Origin: Myxococcota bacterium
Lineage (GTDB): Bacteria; Myxococcota; UBA727; VGSZ01
NCBI GenBank assembly: GCA_044349155.1
Contig: JBIKRQ010000001.1
Location: 6,418 to 70,417 of the forward strand
Reading direction: 5' to 3'
Length of the DNA stretch: 64,000 nucleotides
The translations under genes were made by a program, and so were the position numbers. This document shows, piece after piece, positions 23,253 through 64,000 of this stretch (its first letter is position 1; each line of letters opens with the position of its first letter). The notes below the pieces were generated by a model, which was given only the letters and a program-made list of their open reading frames with translations, was not told where the DNA came from and ran no database searches.

Positions 23253-23278
23253 ACCCAGCGGCAACGCTGGGTTTTTTG
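23253..23278 (+). terminator. rho-independent terminator after tRNA-Val (8-bp stem, GCAA tetraloop, T-tract)
   Basis: acccagcg-gcaa-cgctgggt followed by tttttgtt. Confidence 0.8.
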
Positions 23279-23371
23279 TTGCCACCACGTCTACGTGAGC
23301 GGCTTTCACGATACGGCAGGTGGGCAGTCAACAGAGTTGCGGTGCCTGATCGCGGGTGCTATCGACCGAAC

Positions 23372-24157
23372 ATGCTACGGGGGGGCCCAGCACTCGCGCT
23401 TTGTGCGCTCACATTGTTCGGCTGCGACCGGTCGGTTGCGCCCGACCAGCGTCGTGCAGCCGAAAACGTCATTGGCAAGCTGCCCGCACCGATCCGCGAG
23501 CGGTTCGCCACCGCTGCCGGCCGCCGCGAGATGGAGCGCGCCCTCGACGACAAAGCGCTGCTTGTCGCCGAGGCTCGACGACACGAGTTTCACGAACGTC
23601 CAGACATTCGGACGGCCGTGCAAGAACTTGAGAACAAGTTGATTGTGCAAGCGCTGCTCGAACAAGAGCGCGCCACCGTTTCATCGACAGAGCCAGAACT
23701 TCGGGCGTACTACGACGCCCACCGCGCTGACTTTCGCTTGCCCGCGCGGCGTGAAACCTCGCGCATCCTCGTCGCTGACGCTGACCCAACCGCGGCGCAA
23801 CAGCGGATCGATGGCTTGAAGAAGCGCCTTGCTGCTGGTGAGCCGTTCGCGGTTGTGGCTGCTGCCGGAGACGGTGCCGAGCGCATCACATCGGGGCGCC
23901 TCGGGCACGTGAACCAAGCGCAGGAGGATCGCGCGCTCGCCGACGCTGTCTTCGCCGCCGAGGTGGGCAAGGTGGTTGGCCCGGTGCGCGTCCGCGACGG
24001 CCAGGCCCTGCTGCTGGTCACCGCCGTGCTGCCGGCGTCTGAGCAAGCTTTCGAGGCCGTCCGCGGCGTCGTCGAGAACAAGCTGCAGCCGACGCTGCAG
24101 CGTCGGTCGTTTGAACGTCTGGTGGAACGTCTGCGGACGGAGGCTGACCGTGAGTGA
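23372..24157 (+). CDS. parvulin-type peptidyl-prolyl cis-trans isomerase lipoprotein (SurA/PrsA-like), copy 1
   Basis: MLRGGPALALCALTLFGCDRS carries a lipobox. A SurA-N-like helical segment is followed by a parvulin-like core (RRETSRILV...GDGAERITSGRLGHV...VGKVVGPVRVRDGQALLLV). Its stop TGA at 24155..24157 overlaps the start of the giant gene. Confidence 0.65.
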   Translation: MLRGGPALALCALTLFGCDRSVAPDQRRAAENVIGKLPAPIRERFATAAGRREMERALDDKALLVAEARRHEFHERPDIRTAVQELENKLIVQALLEQERATVSSTEPELRAYYDAHRADFRLPARRETSRILVADADPTAAQQRIDGLKKRLAAGEPFAVVAAAGDGAERITSGRLGHVNQAQEDRALADAVFAAEVGKVVGPVRVRDGQALLLVTAVLPASEQAFEAVRGVVENKLQPTLQRRSFERLVERLRTEADRE

Positions 24158-53738: not shown

Positions 53739-54935
53739 ATGCTTGGAATCTTGTTGCTACACTTCAATCTCGCGGCGCAAGTCGTCCTCGTCGGCGGCAG
53801 CACCGGTGCAGATGGTGTTCTGAATAAGGACTATCTTGACGTGCACGACACCGATGGTCAATTTGGGAGCCCATATCTCCTCACGGTCCCGGCGGGTGGG
53901 CGATTTGAGTTTTCTACGATCAACATTCCAGCGAATGTCACTGTCGGGTTTAAAAGCAATGCAATGAATGACCCTGTCTATCTGCTGGCAACAGGCGATG
54001 TCACGATCGCAGGTCTCGTCCATGTCGACGGGCAACGGGGTCAAACCTCGGCCGGCGGGCGCGGTGGGCCTGGTGGCTACGATGGCGGCGAACCAGGTTT
54101 CGGCGCCACGCCCGGTGACGGCCACGGCCCTGGAGGCGGCCATTTCACTCCGGTAGCCGTTGAGGACAACAACTCACGAAGGGCCCTTTGGTCTGGCAGC
54201 TACTCGGCCGTCGGCCCCGACGGGACGGGTTGGGGTAGAAAGGGCACCGGATCCATCTATGGAAATCCATCATGCTTCCCCCTGACAGGTGGGTCGGGGG
54301 GAGCCGGTGGCTTCAATCAAGGCGGCGGTGGTGGTGGTGGTGGCGCGATCTTGATTGGGTCTGAAGGCAAGATTTCCATCTCGGGAGCTGTGCGCTCACT
54401 TGGCGGTATCTACCCGAACCAGCTGACAGCAGGTAGTGCCTCGGGCGGGTGCGTTCGGATCGTCGCACCGGCCGTGATTGTAACGGGCACGTTGGAGGCA
54501 ACCAGTGTGTTGCCAGGCGTCGACGGAACCGAGTACGGCGGTCGGGGCTTTGTCCGTATTGATACCATTGACCGCTCGGGTCTCGCTGGCATCTCCACCC
54601 CAAGATACAGCGTTGGATCTAATATGGTTGTGCGACTCCAAAGTATGCCACAAATTAGTACAATTTCGGCGGCTGGCCGCACCGTCATCAATGGTGAGAA
54701 GCTCTTCGTGACACTCACCAACGGCGAGCCCGCGCTGCAGGATGTTGTCGTCGAGGTCGCCAACTTCCCCGGGGCACCTGCCTGCGTGAACCTCAACGTC
54801 ATCACCGTGCCCGGCAGCGGCGCGGCCACGAAGACCTCGTTCCCCGCGAAGCCCAACGGCACCCACACGTTGTCCGTGAACATTCCGCAGAACACGGCGA
54901 CGTCGATCGAAGTCTACGGCACGGTGTGCCCGTGA
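53739..54935 (+). CDS. glycine-rich secreted protein, probable beta-helix fold (398 aa)
   Basis: Strong SD AGGAGA 5 nt upstream of the ATG. Signal peptide MLGILLLHFNLAAQVVLVGGSTG. Gly runs (GGRGGPGGYDGGEPG, GGGGGGGGAILIG) alternate with short hydrophobic rungs. The 5' half is ~50-55% GC, markedly below local background. Confidence 0.6.
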   Translation: MLGILLLHFNLAAQVVLVGGSTGADGVLNKDYLDVHDTDGQFGSPYLLTVPAGGRFEFSTINIPANVTVGFKSNAMNDPVYLLATGDVTIAGLVHVDGQRGQTSAGGRGGPGGYDGGEPGFGATPGDGHGPGGGHFTPVAVEDNNSRRALWSGSYSAVGPDGTGWGRKGTGSIYGNPSCFPLTGGSGGAGGFNQGGGGGGGGAILIGSEGKISISGAVRSLGGIYPNQLTAGSASGGCVRIVAPAVIVTGTLEATSVLPGVDGTEYGGRGFVRIDTIDRSGLAGISTPRYSVGSNMVVRLQSMPQISTISAAGRTVINGEKLFVTLTNGEPALQDVVVEVANFPGAPACVNLNVITVPGSGAATKTSFPAKPNGTHTLSVNIPQNTATSIEVYGTVCP

Positions 54936-55657
54936 AACGAGCGGCGCTGCTCGCCCTGCTGGCCGCGGTGGGCTGCTCGGGTTCGGGCGGTCCGAACGTC
55001 GCCGGCACGCCTGTCACCCCGGCAGACCTCGCCCTCGCCGAGGGCGCTTCGGCGCGCGCGTCCCTCGTCGACGACCTGCTGCTGCTCCGCCACGCCAAAG
55101 ACACCGACGCGCTTACCGACCCCGAGCTGCAGGCCCGCCTGCACCGTGCTGAACGCCAGCTCGTTGCCCAGCACGTCACCGACACGCTCGGCAAAGACCT
55201 CGACGACGCCACGCTCCGCAAGGCCTTCGAGAGCGAGCGCGCCTCGCTCACCAAGCGTCGCATCCATGTCGCCCACATCGTGCTGCCCGTGGGCAACGAC
55301 GGCGAACTCGTGCTGGCGCGCCTGCGCAGCGGGGCAGCCTTCGCCGACATCGCCCGCGAGGTCTCGCTCGACGGGGCCACGGCCGAGCGCGGCGGCGAGC
55401 TGCCCGAATTGCTCGAGGGGCAGGTCGACCCGGCGTTCTTCGAGGCCGCCGCGGCCCTCAAGGTCGGCGAGGTCAGCAACGTCGTCGTGGTGGGGCCACA
55501 ACGACACATCATCACAGCACTCGCGGAGGCCGACACCGCGACGCCAACTTTCGAAGCAGCCAAAGACGCTCTGCGCGCGCGGCTGCACCAGCAACGTCGA
55601 GCCGAGCTGCTGACGACGCTGCGTGAGCGCTACGGTGTGAAGGCGGGGGATTTGTGA
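54926..55657 (+). CDS. parvulin-type peptidyl-prolyl cis-trans isomerase lipoprotein, copy 2
   Basis: GTG start (54926, or 54932 giving MKRAALLALLAAVGCSGS with a lipobox). The parvulin-like core is KRRIHVAHIVL...VGEVSNVVVVGPQRHIITAL. It overlaps the preceding gene's stop, and its own stop overlaps the GTG start of the next giant gene (GTGA). Confidence 0.6.
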   Translation: MPVKRAALLALLAAVGCSGSGGPNVAGTPVTPADLALAEGASARASLVDDLLLLRHAKDTDALTDPELQARLHRAERQLVAQHVTDTLGKDLDDATLRKAFESERASLTKRRIHVAHIVLPVGNDGELVLARLRSGAAFADIAREVSLDGATAERGGELPELLEGQVDPAFFEAAAALKVGEVSNVVVVGPQRHIITALAEADTATPTFEAAKDALRARLHQQRRAELLTTLRERYGVKAGDL

Positions 55658-58600
55658 ACCGGTACGTGCTCCTGGTGGTGGTCGCATTGTTGGCAGGCTC
55701 GCGCGTCGAGGCTGCCGCGAACCCGTGTGTGCCCAACAACACCGCGCCGGCGTGCGATCGCGACGCCGACGGCCTGACCAACGCGCAGGAAGCCACGTTC
55801 GGTACGAACCCGGTCGTCGCCGACACCGACGGCGACGGCGTCAAAGACGGGGTCGAGGCCTGGAGCGACAACGACGGCGACGGCAAGAACAACGCAATCG
55901 AATCAAAGATCCTCGACGCTGACGGCGACACCACCGCCGACCAGTTCGACGCCGCCGACGCCAACCCATGCGCGCCTGCGCTGTCGGCACCCACCTGCGA
56001 TCGCGACAACGATGGGCTCACCAACGCACGCGAACTCACCTTCGGCACCAGCAGCACCAATCCCGACACCGACGGCGACGGCGAGCGCGACGGGATTGAA
56101 GCTCCGCTCGATACCGATGGCGACGGCAAAAACGACGCCCGCGAATCGTCGCTGCTCGACGCCGACAGCGACGGCGTGGCCGACGAGACCGACCCGCAAA
56201 ACACCAACGCCTGCGTGCCCTCAAACCGCGCTGGCACCTGCGACGCCGACGGCGACGGCCTCACGAACGCGCGCGAAGCCACCTACGGCACAAACCCCGA
56301 CAACGTCGACACCGACGGCGACGGCCAGCCCGATGGCTGGGAGGCCGCCAGCGACGACGACCAGGACGGCAAGAACAACGCCCTCGAGAGCCGCACGAGT
56401 GACGTCGACGGCGACGGCACTCCCGATCAATGGGACGCTGCCGATGCTGACGCCTGCTTCCCTGACGCGATCTCGTCGCCGACATGCGATGTCGACCTGG
56501 ATGGCCTCACGTGGCTGCAAGAGCAGACCTTCGGCACAAACCCCACGCTCGCCGATACCGACGCCGACGCCGAACTCGACGGCCTCGAAGCCGCCCTCGA
56601 CACCGACCACGACGGCATCAACGACGCGCTCGAGTCCTCGATGGTCGACGCCGACCAGGACGGCCTGAGTGCCGAGGCCGAGCTCGACGACGGCGATGCC
56701 TGCCACCCCTTCGACCTCGCGGGCACCTGCGACTTCGACATGGACAGCCTCACCAACGCCGAAGAAGCCCACTTCGGCACCGACCCCAGAAACCACGACA
56801 CCGACGGCGATGGCGGCTGGGACGGCGATGTGGGCGAAGCGTTCTCCGACGACGACACCGACGGCATCAATGGTGCCCTTGAGTCCGACGACGTCGACAC
56901 CGATGGCGACCTGTACGTCGACGAATACGACCACGACAACGTCGACCCCTGCGTGCCCGATGCTGGATCACTTGCATGCCTCACCCTGCGCGCCGACACC
57001 GACAACGACGGCCTCACCGACGCGCGCGAGGTGCAGCTCGGCACCGATCCCGCCCGCGCCGACACCGACGACGACGGCCTGGGCGACGCGTACGAAGTCA
57101 CCACTGCGGCCTCGCCCCCCGACCACGATGGCGATGGCCTGATCGACGCGCGCGATCCCGACGACGACAACGACGGCGTGCTCACGAGTGCGGAGCGCGG
57201 CCCCGACCCGCTGTCACCGCGCGACAGCAACGGCGACGGCGTGCTCGACCACCTCGACCCCTGCTTCCCGACGGCGTGCGCAGAACCACTGCAGCCGCTG
57301 GCGTGCGCGGGCTTTGGCGACGTGTGCGAGCAGTGCCTCACCGCCGAGCTCGATGCCGAAATCACCAGCGCCGCTGGTGCCGAAGCCGGCCGCACCGACG
57401 CCGTGCAGTGCTTGTGCCGCGACGCGCGTTTCGTCGTGCCACACACCTTCGGCGCCACCGCACCCGTCGCTGCGGGTTCCGAAGCATCGCTGCAGTTCGA
57501 CAACGGCAACACCCTCACGCGCTGCACGTACCGCGCGGCCGACGACGTGTTCGCGTTCGTGTCGTGCCTGAGCACCGCCCCGGGAGCGATCGCCGCCGGC
57601 GACGAAGTGCCTGCCGACGCCGTGGGCCTGCGCATCGTCGATGCGCCCACCACAACCACCGTGGGCCTGGCCCTCGTCGACGCCCTCGCCCCGCCACCCA
57701 CGCTCGCGTTGTCGGTGCAGAACCCCGCGGGCGCTGTGGCCGACGGCAGCATCGTGCAAGGCCCCGTCACCGTCGCGTTGTCGACGAGCGGCGAAGATGT
57801 CTCGACGTTCTCGCTCAATGGCGAGCCGTTTGCGGGCGGCACCATCAGTGCCGAGGGCACGTGGTTGCTCAAGGCGAAAGCTGGTTGCGGCGCCACCGTC
57901 GTCGACGCGACGCATGCCTTCACCATCGACAACACCGCCCCAACAATTGAGATCACGGGCGCTGTCGACGGCGAGATCCGTCGCACCGCTGCCACGATTA
58001 CCATCGCCGCGACTGACGCATCAGCCGTGGTGCTCGAGGCCAGCATCGACGCCGAGCTCGCGGGCACCTCCACCGTCGTCGACACCGACGGCGCGCACAC
58101 CGTGATCGCCACCGCGACCGACGCCGCGGGCAACGTCACCACACGCACCCTGCACTTCACGCTCGACCAGACAGCGCCCACCATCGATGTCATCGCGCCG
58201 CTCGGCGGCAACGTCAGCAGCGCCACCGTCGACGTCAACGTCATCGCCACCGACGCGTTTGGCATCGCCGACGTGAGCGTGTCGGGCACCTCGTTGTTGC
58301 GGAGCGACAACGACCACTACCGCGGCACGGTCACGCTGGTCGCCGGCGACAACCTGCTGACCTTCGACGCCGTCGACGTCGCGGGCCACCACACCACCGC
58401 CGTTCGTCACGTCTTCTTCACCGCGGGTGGTGAAGGTGAAGGCGAGGGCGAGGGCGAAGGTGAAGGCGAGGGCGAGGGCGAGGGTGAAGGCGAAGGCGAA
58501 GGCGAAGGCGAAGGTGAGGGCGAAGGCGAAGGTGAAGGCGAAGGTGAAGGAGAGGGCGAAGGTGAAGGTGAGGGCGAAGGCGAAGGCGAAGGTGAGGGCG

Positions 58601-61600
58601 AAGGCGAAGGTGAAGGTGAGGGCGAAGGACAGCTCCTCGTCTCGCTGAGCAGCCCAGCAGCGTCGTCGATTGTCGCCGATGCCACCATCACGGTCAGCGG
58701 TGCGATCAGCGGCGGTCGTGCGCCCTACACGGCGACCATCAACGGCTTGCCTGCCACCGTCGTGGGCAGGGGCTTTCAGCTCACGTTTGCACCGCCCGAG
58801 GGCCCACTGCATCTCGACGTCGAGGTGCGCAGCGGCACCGACACGGCCTCCGCCACGCGCGACCTCACCATCGACCGCACAGCACCCTCCGTCGAGGTCA
58901 CGAGCCCGATCGAGGGCGTTGTCGTGCAGAGCAATGTGCTGCTGGTCAACGCCACCGTGGGCGACTTGCATCTCGAGCGCGTGACGGTGAACGGTGACGA
59001 CGTCGTCGTGGTCGCCGGCACCGTCGCGCAGCAGGTGCTGTTGGTCCCGGGGCTCAACACCATCACGGTGCGCGCCGTCGATGTCGCCCACAACGTCACG
59101 CTCGTCGAGCGCCATGTGGTCTTCAGTCCGGTGCCGCCGCGCGTGCAGATCGTGGCACCCGCCCCCGATGCCACGCTGTACACCACGCCAACGCGCGTGC
59201 GCGCCACGGTGTCGTCGTCGTCGCCCATCGCCACAGTCACCATGAACGGTGTGGCCGCCGACAATGCTGGTGGTGTGTACGAGGCCGACGTTCCTCTCGT
59301 CGCGGGCAGCAACACCATCACCTTCGTCGCCACCGACAGCCTGGGCGCCCAAACCACGGCCACCACCACGGTCAGCTACGTCGATGGCAGCACCCAGCCC
59401 CTCACGGTGTCGCTGCTGTCGCCCGACGTCGACGCCGCCGACGTCGAGCCCGACACGTTGATCAGCCTCGGCTTCAGCAAGCCGGTCCTGTCGTCGTCGG
59501 TGGCCAGCGCTGTGCGCCTGTTGGTCAACGGCAACGCGGTTGATTTCAGCGTGTCGACGTCGCCCGACGGCTTGATGGCGTCGCTCATCCCGCAGCGTCC
59601 GCTCAGCGAGAAGGCGCGCGTCGTCGTGCGCGTCAGCGGGCTCGAGAGTGAAACCCCGCCGTCGCAGCAGGGTGGCTTCGAGGGCACGTTCACAGTGCGC
59701 GCGCCGCTCACCGGTGTGGTGGGCGTGGTGCTCGACGAAGACCTCCGGCCCGTGGTGGGCGCGCGCGTCGTCATCGAGGGCACAAGCCACACCGCGGTGA
59801 CGGGTTCTGACGGCCACTGGGGTGTGCTCGACCTCGAGGCCAACGCCTATCGTCTGCACATCTCGGCACCGGGCGAGGAGCAGCCGCTCACGGCGTTCCG
59901 TCCGCAGATCGTTGTCGAGCCCGAGCAGGTGAACACGGTTGGCCCGCACATCCTGCAGGTCATCGATCGCAGCTCAGCCGTGTTTGTCGACGCCACCGAG
60001 CCGCTCAACGCCAGCTTCGGCGGCGCGAGTGTGGGCTTCGGCGTGCACCAAACCGAGCCCCTCGGCATCGCCTTCACCGACGGCAGCACGCGCGGCCAGC
60101 TCACGGTCACAAAGGTGCCAACGCACTCGTTGCCACACGCCATCGACGGGCGCATCGGTTCGCCAGTGCTGTGGAGTGTGCAGCCGCAGGGCACGCAGTT
60201 CACAAAGCCCAGCACGCTGCACTTCCCGAACACCAGCGGTCTCGCGGCGGGTCACGTGGTGATTGTCTACGCCCTCGACGACGCCAGCGCGCGCATCGTG
60301 CCGCGTGTGTTGGCGCGCGTGAGTGCCGACGCGAGTCACATCGTCGCCGACAAGCCCATCACGGGCGTGCTCGACATCGTGGGCTACCAGCCGCTCACCA
60401 CCGAGCAAGAGCAGCAGGTGTTGGGCACAGCACCGGGCACGCAGGGCGCCTGGCTCGACGACGTGCGCAACGCCGTGCTGCCAAGTGCCCACGCACAGTT
60501 CCTCAACGGTCTCGACTTCACGATGCCGTCGCCACCATCGCCAACGCCCACAGCACTCACGGGCAGGGTGAAATACATCTCGCGCACAGCAGGCCAGGCG
60601 GGCGAGACGGGCATCGGAATTCCGAACGTCCTCGTCTCGGACGTGAACGACGATTCGCGCATCACGGGCCCGACGGGTGGCTTCGGCTTCGTCGTCAACC
60701 TCACCGGTCAGCTCACCGAAATCGTGACCGCGGAAATTGCCCTCGGCACGTTCCCGGTCGCGCACGTCGACGCCGAGGGCCGTCGCCGCATCGTCATGGT
60801 GCAGAGCCGCTTGTACGCGCGCTCACCGGTGTTCGACATGTTGCCGGGCGCCGTGTTCAACACGAGCGTTCTCGTCGACGCGCAGGTGTTGCGCGGCAAG
60901 GTCACCTTCGTCGACCACGAAGGCAAAGTGCTGCCACCGATCGTCACCGGCGGCGAGACCGCGCGCGACGAGCAGGGCGAGCTCACGGCCATCTCGAGTG
61001 CCGACGCTTCAACAACGGAAGTCCACTTCTTCAAAGCCGACGACCACACCCGCGCGATTGCGAAGTACTCGATCGTTGCCCCCGTCGTGGGCTCGACGAC
61101 AACCCATGGTTCTTACGCCCGTTTGCGCTTCGGGCCGCGCGACCTGGCGAAGGCCGAACGCGTGCGCGCCGGCATCGGCGATGCGCGTGTGATTCGCGAG
61201 GGTGACGAGGTCATGGTCTTCGCCATCAACCACGCCACCGGCTACGCGGGCATGACGACTGTGAAGGTGCCCGACTACGGCAACGAGGCGGCGCGTATCA
61301 CCGACATCGTCGAGATCGTGGGCGACATCAAGCTCTTCCCGCCCGAGATCGAAGTGGCCGTCGAACGTCAGTTCACCGCGCAAGGCGTGAAGTCGACGTT
61401 GCCGCCGTCGAAGGTTCGGCAAGGCGGGCTTGCAACACGTCAAGATGATTGGCTCAAGGTCGCGACGCGTTGGCGCGTGCGGCTCGCACCGGCAGTTGAA
61501 GATGACCTCGTCGATGGCGGGCTGCGCGGCCCGCTCGATCCGCGCATTGATGCCGGTGTGCTGACCACCGAGGTTCGCACCGATGCCGGCGAACCAACGG

Positions 61601-64000
61601 CATTGCTCGATGAAGGAGCCGCAGGCGGACTCCTCGAGCGGTCGTGTGCGGAACTTGGAGAAGACGCGTCGCTGCGCGAACAACTGGAATGTCTGAACGA
61701 TGAACGAACCTTGACGGCGGTGCCTGAAGGCGTGCCGCCGCTTGCTGCGCGTCTTGTGCATCTGTCGGCAGCAGCGTCGACGGACACGCTGTTTCACATC
61801 ACCGGTGGCACCACCCTGACACCACAGGTCTTTCATGCAGCCCGACGGCTCGAAAGCGGCTCACAGCTGCAGGTCACCGAAGGCGTTCACCTGGTGCATG
61901 TTGTTGGGCGACAGATGCAATTCGCCGACGCCGACAACGACGGCGAGTTGAGCGTCGCTGAATCCATCGTGGGTACGGCCTGTCGAGAAGTTGAAGGCGG
62001 GTTCGCGTGCAGCGCGCCAATTCAGCCGAGCGACGCAGTGCTCGTCACCGGTGCGCCAGACTTCCGCGACGACGCAACACTCCGGGGCTTCCCCAGGCAA
62101 GCGATTGCGGTGAAGGCCTTGTACGACGCGAACCTCCGTGACGAGGCCAAGGGCGCGCGAAAGGTGCAGGCCTACGATCGCGTTCGCGAACATCGTTTTC
62201 GCATCGCTTCGCTGATCGGCAACGACGTGCGCGCTGGCGCCAACGAGTCTTCAACGCGGAACCTGAGCGACGAGAAGGAGCCACAAGCGGACGACCAGGA
62301 TGCCTTCATCGGGCTTTCCCTGTTCTTGAACGACGTCGGACGAGGGGAGCGCGCCGGCGCGCGCTCCGACTTCGAGGTTCGTCTTGGCACTGACGCTTCG
62401 GGTGTTGAGTGCGATTGGCACATCGATCAGCAGTCGCAGGCCGTCACCGCCGATTGCGACAGCGAGTACCTGCCGGAGATCATCAGCGCGAACGACCTCG
62501 TCTACGTCGAGCTCTTTGAGCGCAGCAACAGCGCCAATGTGCTGTACCGCTTCAACTTTTACGGCGTCTCGACGCGCGTTGACCATGCGTCTGCCACGAC
62601 GACCCAAACGCTTGAACGTGCTGTCCCCGACGACCGGAGCCAGTTCGTGCGGTTGAACCGTGCGCCACACAGCAAGCTGAACAAAGCCATCTTTGCGATC
62701 AGCGAGCACCTGTTTACCGGCAACACGGCCGCGCTTGAGTTGCGCGCTGGCGACACCGTTGTCCGCCGCATCAACGTCACTCGCGCCAACGGCGAGGTTG
62801 CGATTGTCGGCGACCCGACCGACGGGTGGCAGGCACCCATCGTGCTTTTCAAGGAGCAAGTCGGTGCGACTCGCTACGCAGAAATGGACCTGCCAGCGTG
62901 GGTCACCTCGATGCTGGCGCGGGTGAACGCGCCGGCGTTGTCGCTCTCGGCGCGCTCGCCAACGGGAACAACAACGATCGCCATGGGTCGTGCGATGGGT
63001 CGCATCGAGAGTCGCGCAGCGCGGCCACCAGGTCACCGCGTCTTCAACGACCTCGACATGATCGACGGACGCTTGTCGTTCACCGATGTCGATATTGATG
63101 TGCCCGAGCGCGGCGCGCGCGTTCAGTTTGTGCGGACGTACAACAACCAGAACAACGAGGTGGGCAGCCTCGGCGTCGGGTTCACGCACAACCACGAAGC
63201 CTTCGTTGTCGAGGAGACACGGCTTGTCGAGGCCGCTGTCATTGGCCGCTACTCGGTTGTCGTCGGTGGGCAGCAGCTCACCTTCCCCGAATGTCAACAC
63301 AACACGCGCTGCGCCAGCGACAAGAGCATGGACGCGACGCTGACGGTGACCGACACCATCGTCGGTACCTTGAAGGCAACACTCGAGGACCACGGCTCTG
63401 GTCGGATTCTCACGTTCGAGCGGCCCGCAATGGCTGGCACAGACGAGCTGAAGGACAAGACCTGGTTGTCGTCGATCGACGACGGGCTCAACGGCAAGAT
63501 CCGCTACAGCTACAGCGGCCAGAACGAACTCGCATCGGTCGCGCGCGACAACGGCCTGGTCCGCATGGAGTTCACGTACGACACGCTCGACGTCTCTCCG
63601 CTGACACATTCGAAGCTCCGCGAGCAGATCGAACTGTTCGGCCTCAAACGCCTCGCGTCCGTCACGGTCAAGCATGGCGACACCGAGATTGAGAAGGTCG
63701 TTTTCTCGCACGACACGGGCGGCACCTCATGCGCGTCGTCGCTGTCGCGCGAACCGCAGGTGATGAAGCTGAACCTGCTGCTCGCTGCCTGTCGACCGCT
63801 ACGCGCCCCGATGCCGGAGTGGCACTTCGTGTACGAGCGCATTCCAGGCGATGTCACGCTGCCAACGAAGCAGCTCTTGCTGGCGAACGAGTTGAAGTCG
63901 CGCGAACTCCACGTCAATGGCGGTGCGCTTTACAGCAGCTGGAAGTACACCCACGCGACCGGCGACGAGTTCAAGGTTGTTCCCCACCTCACGCGCGGCG
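55654..64000 (+). CDS. second giant secreted protein, 3'-partial (>2,782 aa in window): TSP3-like Ca-binding repeats, Ig-like domains, (GE)n linker, CarboxypepD_reg-like domain, RHS/YD-repeat onset
   Basis: It is not in the ORF track because there is no stop before the window end. The frame was verified by hand at 55654, 57001, 58420, 59401, 60001, 61981, 63001 and 63961. GTG 55654 follows a TGA at 55624 in the same frame. Signal peptide MNRYVLLVVVALLAGSRVEAAA. There are seven repeats of C-x-P-x(4-6)-C-D-x-D-x-DGLTNA-x-E-x(3)-GTNP-x(3)-DTDGDG-x(2)-DG-x-E. Near the end are VQFVRTYNNQNNEVGSLGVGFTHNHE and IRYSYSGQNELASVARDNGLVRMEFTYD, which are the RHS/YD onset. Confidence 0.75.
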   Translation, partial: MNRYVLLVVVALLAGSRVEAAANPCVPNNTAPACDRDADGLTNAQEATFGTNPVVADTDGDGVKDGVEAWSDNDGDGKNNAIESKILDADGDTTADQFDAADANPCAPALSAPTCDRDNDGLTNARELTFGTSSTNPDTDGDGERDGIEAPLDTDGDGKNDARESSLLDADSDGVADETDPQNTNACVPSNRAGTCDADGDGLTNAREATYGTNPDNVDTDGDGQPDGWEAASDDDQDGKNNALESRTSDVDGDGTPDQWDAADADACFPDAISSPTCDVDLDGLTWLQEQTFGTNPTLADTDADAELDGLEAALDTDHDGINDALESSMVDADQDGLSAEAELDDGDACHPFDLAGTCDFDMDSLTNAEEAHFGTDPRNHDTDGDGGWDGDVGEAFSDDDTDGINGALESDDVDTDGDLYVDEYDHDNVDPCVPDAGSLACLTLRADTDNDGLTDAREVQLGTDPARADTDDDGLGDAYEVTTAASPPDHDGDGLIDARDPDDDNDGVLTSAERGPDPLSPRDSNGDGVLDHLDPCFPTACAEPLQPLACAGFGDVCEQCLTAELDAEITSAAGAEAGRTDAVQCLCRDARFVVPHTFGATAPVAAGSEASLQFDNGNTLTRCTYRAADDVFAFVSCLSTAPGAIAAGDEVPADAVGLRIVDAPTTTTVGLALVDALAPPPTLALSVQNPAGAVADGSIVQGPVTVALSTSGEDVSTFSLNGEPFAGGTISAEGTWLLKAKAGCGATVVDATHAFTIDNTAPTIEITGAVDGEIRRTAATITIAATDASAVVLEASIDAELAGTSTVVDTDGAHTVIATATDAAGNVTTRTLHFTLDQTAPTIDVIAPLGGNVSSATVDVNVIATDAFGIADVSVSGTSLLRSDNDHYRGTVTLVAGDNLLTFDAVDVAGHHTTAVRHVFFTAGGEGEGEGEGEGEGEGEGEGEGEGEGEGEGEGEGEGEGEGEGEGEGEGEGEGEGEGEGEGEGEGEGEGQLLVSLSSPAASSIVADATITVSGAISGGRAPYTATINGLPATVVGRGFQLTFAPPEGPLHLDVEVRSGTDTASATRDLTIDRTAPSVEVTSPIEGVVVQSNVLLVNATVGDLHLERVTVNGDDVVVVAGTVAQQVLLVPGLNTITVRAVDVAHNVTLVERHVVFSPVPPRVQIVAPAPDATLYTTPTRVRATVSSSSPIATVTMNGVAADNAGGVYEADVPLVAGSNTITFVATDSLGAQTTATTTVSYVDGSTQPLTVSLLSPDVDAADVEPDTLISLGFSKPVLSSSVASAVRLLVNGNAVDFSVSTSPDGLMASLIPQRPLSEKARVVVRVSGLESETPPSQQGGFEGTFTVRAPLTGVVGVVLDEDLRPVVGARVVIEGTSHTAVTGSDGHWGVLDLEANAYRLHISAPGEEQPLTAFRPQIVVEPEQVNTVGPHILQVIDRSSAVFVDATEPLNASFGGASVGFGVHQTEPLGIAFTDGSTRGQLTVTKVPTHSLPHAIDGRIGSPVLWSVQPQGTQFTKPSTLHFPNTSGLAAGHVVIVYALDDASARIVPRVLARVSADASHIVADKPITGVLDIVGYQPLTTEQEQQVLGTAPGTQGAWLDDVRNAVLPSAHAQFLNGLDFTMPSPPSPTPTALTGRVKYISRTAGQAGETGIGIPNVLVSDVNDDSRITGPTGGFGFVVNLTGQLTEIVTAEIALGTFPVAHVDAEGRRRIVMVQSRLYARSPVFDMLPGAVFNTSVLVDAQVLRGKVTFVDHEGKVLPPIVTGGETARDEQGELTAISSADASTTEVHFFKADDHTRAIAKYSIVAPVVGSTTTHGSYARLRFGPRDLAKAERVRAGIGDARVIREGDEVMVFAINHATGYAGMTTVKVPDYGNEAARITDIVEIVGDIKLFPPEIEVAVERQFTAQGVKSTLPPSKVRQGGLATRQDDWLKVATRWRVRLAPAVEDDLVDGGLRGPLDPRIDAGVLTTEVRTDAGEPTALLDEGAAGGLLERSCAELGEDASLREQLECLNDERTLTAVPEGVPPLAARLVHLSAAASTDTLFHITGGTTLTPQVFHAARRLESGSQLQVTEGVHLVHVVGRQMQFADADNDGELSVAESIVGTACREVEGGFACSAPIQPSDAVLVTGAPDFRDDATLRGFPRQAIAVKALYDANLRDEAKGARKVQAYDRVREHRFRIASLIGNDVRAGANESSTRNLSDEKEPQADDQDAFIGLSLFLNDVGRGERAGARSDFEVRLGTDASGVECDWHIDQQSQAVTADCDSEYLPEIISANDLVYVELFERSNSANVLYRFNFYGVSTRVDHASATTTQTLERAVPDDRSQFVRLNRAPHSKLNKAIFAISEHLFTGNTAALELRAGDTVVRRINVTRANGEVAIVGDPTDGWQAPIVLFKEQVGATRYAEMDLPAWVTSMLARVNAPALSLSARSPTGTTTIAMGRAMGRIESRAARPPGHRVFNDLDMIDGRLSFTDVDIDVPERGARVQFVRTYNNQNNEVGSLGVGFTHNHEAFVVEETRLVEAAVIGRYSVVVGGQQLTFPECQHNTRCASDKSMDATLTVTDTIVGTLKATLEDHGSGRILTFERPAMAGTDELKDKTWLSSIDDGLNGKIRYSYSGQNELASVARDNGLVRMEFTYDTLDVSPLTHSKLREQIELFGLKRLASVTVKHGDTEIEKVVFSHDTGGTSCASSLSREPQVMKLNLLLAACRPLRAPMPEWHFVYERIPGDVTLPTKQLLLANELKSRELHVNGGALYSSWKYTHATGDEFKVVPHLTRG
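58429..58629 (+). repeat. hexanucleotide (GGY GAR)n microsatellite encoding a perfect (Gly-Glu)~33 dipeptide run inside the second giant CDS
   Basis: ggtgaaggtgaaggcgagggcgag... read directly. The antisense frame reads (PS)n and the +1 frame reads (KVKA)n, which explains shadow ORFs 58407..58691- and 58427..58648+. Confidence 0.9.

Follow-up and report, generated by a model that had tools for sequence, protein, structure and literature searches.

Positions 55654 to 64000 of the window, i.e., the complete 64,000-nucleotide stretch of Myxococcota DNA analyzed here, very probably encode the N-terminal 2782 of the 4520 residues of a giant, Sec-exported and T6SS-independent polymorphic toxin of the Rhs family, for which an RHS core, a toxin and an immunity gene are predicted. 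Since the last 1738 residues lie outside the window, these three elements represent predictions for this locus. The gene joins a known class, namely, the giant T6SS-independent Rhs polymorphic toxins of myxobacteria, and is a fairly ordinary member of it; what was found is a giant gene cut short by the window end, called correctly, and no new kind of system. It adds a family member from an uncultured lineage featuring an unusual TSP3 arm with predicted calcium binding. The first-pass annotation had proposed an Rhs/YD polymorphic toxin with shell and toxin located downstream, a dedicated parvulin and a link to a giant adhesin, and this main reading was supported by the 1738 additional residues, the C-termini of the relatives and the presence of the parvulin in 21 loci.

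Reading of the window on both strands revealed a forward frame without stop codon from position 55627 to the window end (64000), comprising 2791 codons, in agreement with the earlier observation of more than 8.3 kb of continuous frame running off the end. Considering the local base composition, the chance of an open frame of this length is approximately 5e-29. The GC3 value of the giant Rhs frame is 0.82, and competing stop-free stretches over the same region reach at most 650 codons on both strands. The gene starts with GTG at position 55654, located within the tetranucleotide GTGA, and thereby overlaps the TGA of the upstream parvulin ORF by 4 nt. Gene calls by JGI and NCBI agree on this start and on a 4520-aa product contained within its contig, so that the window holds the first 2782 codons and the frame continues for 1738 codons past position 64000. 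A stop just beyond the window, named at first pass as an outcome that would speak against the proposed reading, was thus not encountered in these calls. The absence of the gene from the ORF track, likewise pointed out before, is explained by the ORF lister, which leaves out frames running off the end. The following features were assigned:

54932 to 55657, forward strand: lipoprotein parvulin (PrsA-like peptidyl-prolyl isomerase) of 241 aa (Pfam; public gene calls)
55654 to 55713, forward strand: GTG start and predicted Sec (SPI-type) signal peptide, VNRYVLLVVVALLAGSRVEA|AANPC (sequence reading; putative cleavage site)
55714 to 57249, forward strand: TSP3-type array, predicted to bind calcium (Pfam TSP3_bac; repeat dissection)
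57262 to 57573, forward strand: Cys-rich region (aa 537-640) with 9 Cys and without family assignment (Cys positions)
57601 to 58428, forward strand: Ig-like domains of the Big_13/Big_3_3 type (Pfam below cut-off; conserved in the relatives' loci)
58429 to 58626, forward strand: (Gly-Glu)33 linker (TRF period 6; exact repeat count)
58627 to 59634, forward strand: further Ig-like domains, two Glucodextran_B and one Big_5 (Pfam)
59716 to 59934, forward strand: CarboxypepD_reg, transthyretin-like (aa 1355-1427; PF13620)
60601 to 63033, forward strand: family-specific conserved module (aa ~1650-2460; predicted beta-sandwich chain)
63055 to 63216, forward strand: DUF6531 (PF20148; aa 2468-2521), plugging the Rhs shell at its N-terminal end
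63217 to 63999, forward strand: first ~260 residues past the plug, degenerate YD-like hairpins; the gene goes on

Pfam matches above the cut-off were obtained for TSP3_bac, Glucodextran_B (twice), Big_5, CarboxypepD_reg and DUF6531. The thrombospondin-type-3-like character previously proposed for the N-terminus was confirmed by the TSP3_bac match (PF18884, 43 bits, cut-off 25), calcium binding being predicted from the loop motifs. Dissection of the array resulted in five regular units of 81-83 aa and one divergent unit of 104 aa, replacing the seven repeats of ~70 aa counted before. Each unit contains one C-x8/9-C pair, consistent with the two cysteines per repeat noted at first pass, but four DxDxD loops instead of two DxDxDG loops, amounting to 24 loops in the six units. 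A TSP3 array was also found in the relative P0005. Matches to the CglD and MtsD 'equivalog' models, reaching 48 bits compared to a cut-off of 400, reflect shared TSP3 repeats only. For the Cys-rich region following the array, a similar CxxC...CLC stretch occurs in the relative P0004.

The earlier assignment of Ig domains and a CarboxypepD_reg domain held: Glucodextran_B (76.8 bits, best stretch aa 1078-1155), Big_5 (aa 1247-1327) and PF13620 (35.5 bits, cut-off 32.3) all exceeded their cut-offs, and Big_13 (aa 759-838) and Big_3_3 (aa 812-856) were recorded below cut-off. Synonymous codons vary inside the (GE)33 repeat, and a Pfam TrAA12 match was considered spurious because it falls on this low-complexity stretch.

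The region between the transthyretin-like domain and the plug harbors a conserved module of ~800 aa, which features conserved Cys pairs and the motifs HFFKADD, NHATGY, FPPEIEV and NVLYRFN, and is predicted to represent a chain of beta-sandwich domains. It could not be assigned to a known family in Pfam, NCBIfam or a profile search of PDB sequences; with the profile of aa 1650-2782, none of the PDB chains reached E<=1 in a library that includes the full-length bacterial teneurin-like protein BiTLP. The module is followed by DUF6531 (30-31 bits, cut-off 24.1), a domain described for Tse5 as plugging the Rhs barrel at its N-terminal end (PMC10684867) and here marking the plug typical of Rhs/YD toxins.

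An RHS/YD onset had been proposed for the final ~1 kb of the window, and this claim was upheld for the beginning of the shell but not for canonical YD repeats. The RHS onset is deduced from the DUF6531 plug, the homology to relatives continuing into shells and the structural match. Concerning the latter, the first structure model was poor overall (mean pLDDT 55) and usable for the last ~300 residues only; the last ~260 residues of the window are shell-like in structure, and the best structural matches were T6SS Rhs cores and TcdB2-TccC3. Canonical YD repeats were not detected within the window: the previously suggested search with RHS_repeat (PF05593) yielded nothing even at E<=10, and the 'EFTYD' stretch cited as a repeat scored -1.6 bits, not exceeding the shuffled control sequence, with an HMM trained on 151 canonical repeats from relatives. 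The window stops ~260 aa past the plug, and the family's canonical YD repeats become recognizable only from ~500 aa past it.

Relatives of the protein comprise 39 cluster representatives (E<=1e-30), mostly between 2.5 and 6.4 thousand aa long, and the 38 genome loci in which relatives were found all belong to Myxococcota. M. xanthus AM003 and many Myxococcaceae and Archangiaceae encode relatives that are ~30% identical across 1100 aa. All complete relatives contain YD repeats and are accompanied by immunity-like ORFs; they end either in an RHS core with a variable tail of ~300 aa or in a PT-HINT pre-toxin module with a variable tail of ~130 aa. P0003 (55% identity) and P0004 (45%), the relatives most similar in the conserved module, carry the RHS-associated core (TIGR03696) with its aspartyl-protease motif PxxxxDPxG. 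P0003 exceeded the cut-offs for NCBIfam YD_repeat_2x and Rhs_assc_core, and both P0003 and P0005 passed PF05593 and TIGR01643; the core of P0003 is represented by RWLDPASGRFLSLDP...PTKYTDPDGR and precedes a tail of 318 aa, and P0004 is similar. The tails are unlike each other: that of C. fuscus carries Tox-MPTase5, that of P0004 matches WHH weakly, and most are without a Pfam match. In most of the relatives' loci, unrelated ORFs of 86-203 aa begin within ~20 nt of the stop codon. The family profile matched Rhs shells with E-values between 2e-19 and 1e-11. Short-form relatives without the adhesive arm retain module, shell and tail and reside beside integrase, toxin-antitoxin and IS genes.

As part of the family uses PT-HINT, the release module of the protein studied was deduced from its length and its nearest relatives, and both predict a C-terminus of the RHS-core type beyond the window. 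Between the plug motif and the C-terminus lie 2026 aa, compared to 2044-2282 aa in relatives with an RHS core and only ~1490-1560 aa in those with PT-HINT, and P0003 and P0004, which rank first in similarity of the conserved module, carry the core. It is accordingly unlikely, though the most plausible of the alternatives weighed here, that the protein belongs to the same family and ends in a PT-HINT pre-toxin with a toxin of ~130 aa. Such an ending would be in line with P0005, whose N-terminal architecture is the most similar (TSP3 array, Big, Glucodextran_B, CarboxypepD_reg) and which, like P0006 and P0007, terminates in PT-HINT and ~130 aa in place of the RHS core; PT-HINT is also C-terminal in P0012 and P0024, and a PT-HINT ORF follows P0002, which stems from the same metagenome sample. 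A further alternative is a giant protein without toxicity that serves as adhesin or in the matrix, in which TSP3 and Ig domains would provide calcium-dependent adhesion and the YD shell would be only structural. More than half of the visible protein consists of adhesion-type domains, the TSP3 regions resemble those of CglD and MtsD, two proteins of the M. xanthus surface, a recognized toxin domain is missing from most relatives' tails, and one M. xanthus rhs mutant reportedly showed motility and predation phenotypes and not killing (PMC10433427). However, the autoproteolytic release modules of the relatives (RHS core or PT-HINT), their hypervariable tails including a metallopeptidase toxin domain, their immunity-like ORFs and the short forms, which drop the arm but keep module, shell and tail in the vicinity of integrase, toxin-antitoxin and IS genes, render this explanation very improbable.

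The first-pass annotation had also considered the protein 'teneurin-like', of which a general resemblance stands. A bacterial teneurin-like protein (TLP; Raoelijaona et al. 2026) functioning mainly in cell-cell interaction is improbable, to a slightly lesser degree than a non-toxic adhesin. TLPs feature the layout BIG-TTR-TIP-FN-plug-NHL-YD shell, with the TIP domain being unresolved in the published structure (PMC13018210). They and metazoan teneurins share with the window protein the general order in which adhesion domains (Ig-like), a transthyretin-like CarboxypepD_reg domain and an inserted module precede the plug, to be followed by the YD shell and the variable C-terminus that are predicted for the window protein (PMC13018210; PMC5851990). 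Moreover, TLPs are enriched in Myxococcota, occurring in more than 20% of the species (PMC13018210), both families being enriched in social Myxococcota, and teneurins and TLP were present among the structural and profile matches. Nevertheless, no NHL repeat, and hence no six-bladed NHL propeller as in TLPs, was detected by Pfam in the window or in the relatives P0001, P0002, P0003, P0005 and P0006. Matches of the family profile to BiTLP (9ifo/9pt5) and teneurins were confined to positions of the YD shell and were ~10 orders of magnitude weaker than those to Rhs cores, which also provided the better structural fit. The module preceding the plug showed no sequence match to full-length BiTLP and its TIP/TTR region, a TIP domain not being recognizable with the profile of aa 1650-2782. 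The C. fuscus TLP is 2336 aa long (PMC13018210), compared to an open frame of ~5170 codons for the C. fuscus relative, indicating different genes, and the window protein is about double the size of TLPs. Finally, its signal peptide is not of the lipoprotein type predicted for myxobacterial TLPs (PMC13018210). As judged from its sequence, the window protein falls outside the published TLP definition, and the family is set apart from the recently described bacterial TLPs found in the same genomes. Least probable of all is a T6SS-delivered Rhs effector or a TcB/TcC-type component of a Tc toxin, to which only the top structural matches (T6SS Rhs cores and TcdB2-TccC3) point. T6SS Rhs effectors whose cocoon structures have been solved, such as Tse5, RhsA, Photorhabdus Rhs1/Tre23 and S. 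bongori Rhs possess PAAR- or VgrG-linked N-termini, lack a signal peptide and span ~1100-1250 aa from plug to core, compared to ~1750 aa in the family studied, which in turn features a Sec signal and an extracellular-type arm of ~2400 aa. Pfam identified no PAAR, VgrG, SpvB or TcdB_toxin_midN domain in the window protein, the scan of window ORFs revealed neither T6SS nor TcA genes, and neither a PAAR/VgrG-binding N-terminus nor the beta-propeller of TcB/TcC was observed. Large myxobacterial Rhs proteins were described to work without a T6SS (PMC10433427).

The preferred reading as an Rhs polymorphic toxin corresponds to the large (~4000 aa), signal-peptide-bearing and T6SS-independent Rhs proteins involved in M. 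xanthus kin discrimination (review PMC10433427). In particular, Rhs4 and Rhs5 (~4000 aa; Vassallo et al. 2020, as described in PMC10433427) resemble the window protein in giant size and signal peptide, and also in the YD/Rhs cocoon, the polymorphic C-terminal toxin and the T6SS independence predicted for the latter. Compared to M. xanthus-type loci, the window copy originates from an uncultured source and carries the N-terminal TSP3 array and the (GE)33 linker, both of which are missing from the loci of named genomes.

Giant T6SS-independent Rhs toxins represent one of three known myxobacterial kin-discrimination weapons. Their Gram-positive counterpart in the comparison is WapA, a wall-associated protein of ~2300 aa with cell-wall-binding repeats; it is a YD-repeat protein exported through Sec and displayed on the surface, carries its toxin at the C-terminus, has its immunity gene downstream and acts in contact-dependent competition, all of which is predicted for the window protein as well.

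The parvulin encoded immediately upstream matched Rotamase, Rotamase_2 and Rotamase_3 above the cut-offs and contains the lipobox-like sequence LLAAVGC (AVGC). Orthologues with 30-41% identity immediately precede Rhs relatives in 21 loci, the 4-nt overlap recurs in 15 of these, and the lipobox pattern is present in 13 out of 17 orthologues, two more being lipobox-like. The combination of rotamase domain and lipoprotein signal is common to PrsA-type foldases. Matches to NCBIfam PrsA/SurA-type models were partial and all far under the equivalog cut-offs, indicating that the parvulin resembles PrsA and is not an equivalog member. Compared to PrsA, this putative foldase is tied by synteny and the 4-nt overlap to one giant gene and belongs to a diderm host. 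A pairing of parvulin and Rhs genes was not found in the literature searched, and prolyl isomerases are unmentioned in the part of the 2012 polymorphic-toxin survey covered here. Synteny suggests that the parvulin may be dedicated to the folding of the giant product. Two conserved traits emerged from the comparison of the 38 loci, namely, the translationally coupled lipoprotein parvulin preceding the Rhs gene and the pre-plug module of ~800 aa.

According to the proposed mechanism, the parvulin and Rhs genes would form one translationally coupled unit, as suggested by their overlap and its conservation, and the Rhs protein would be exported through Sec via its signal peptide. The membrane-anchored, PrsA-like parvulin may then aid folding of the long, beta-rich chain after export. 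The N-terminal ~2400 residues, as judged from their domains, probably represent a surface stalk or adhesion arm composed of the putatively calcium-stiffened TSP3 array, Ig-like and transthyretin-like domains, the (GE)33 hinge and the beta-sandwich module. At aa ~2468, the DUF6531 plug opens what is predicted to be a YD-repeat cocoon, and the plug and the beginning of the shell lie within the window. Beyond the window, gene length and relatives suggest an RHS-associated aspartyl-protease core, a toxin of ~275 residues inside the shell and a small immunity gene. Based on the literature on the large M. xanthus Rhs proteins, the toxin may be released and delivered upon contact with a neighboring cell, for kin discrimination or competition.

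More tentatively, and less likely than not to hold, parvulin and Rhs protein might be regarded as a two-gene export and folding unit for one substrate of ~0.5 MDa, and the pre-plug module as a Myxococcota-specific device for delivery or receptor recognition, constituting, together with the neighboring giant Ig/TIG adhesin, an undescribed T6SS-independent contact-killing apparatus. A parvulin gene precedes both giant genes of the window (23276-24157 and 54932-55657), which corroborates the earlier statement that its position mirrors that at the first giant gene. A duplication of the giant-gene cassettes was rejected, since the ORFs of 398 aa and 370 aa upstream of the two parvulins are unrelated, and the parvulins share only 25% identity. 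In other genomes, relatives of the first giant protein adjoin Rhs giants, and this arrangement, along with the parvulin pairing conserved in 21 loci, supports the paired adhesin/toxin-delivery locus suggested at first pass.

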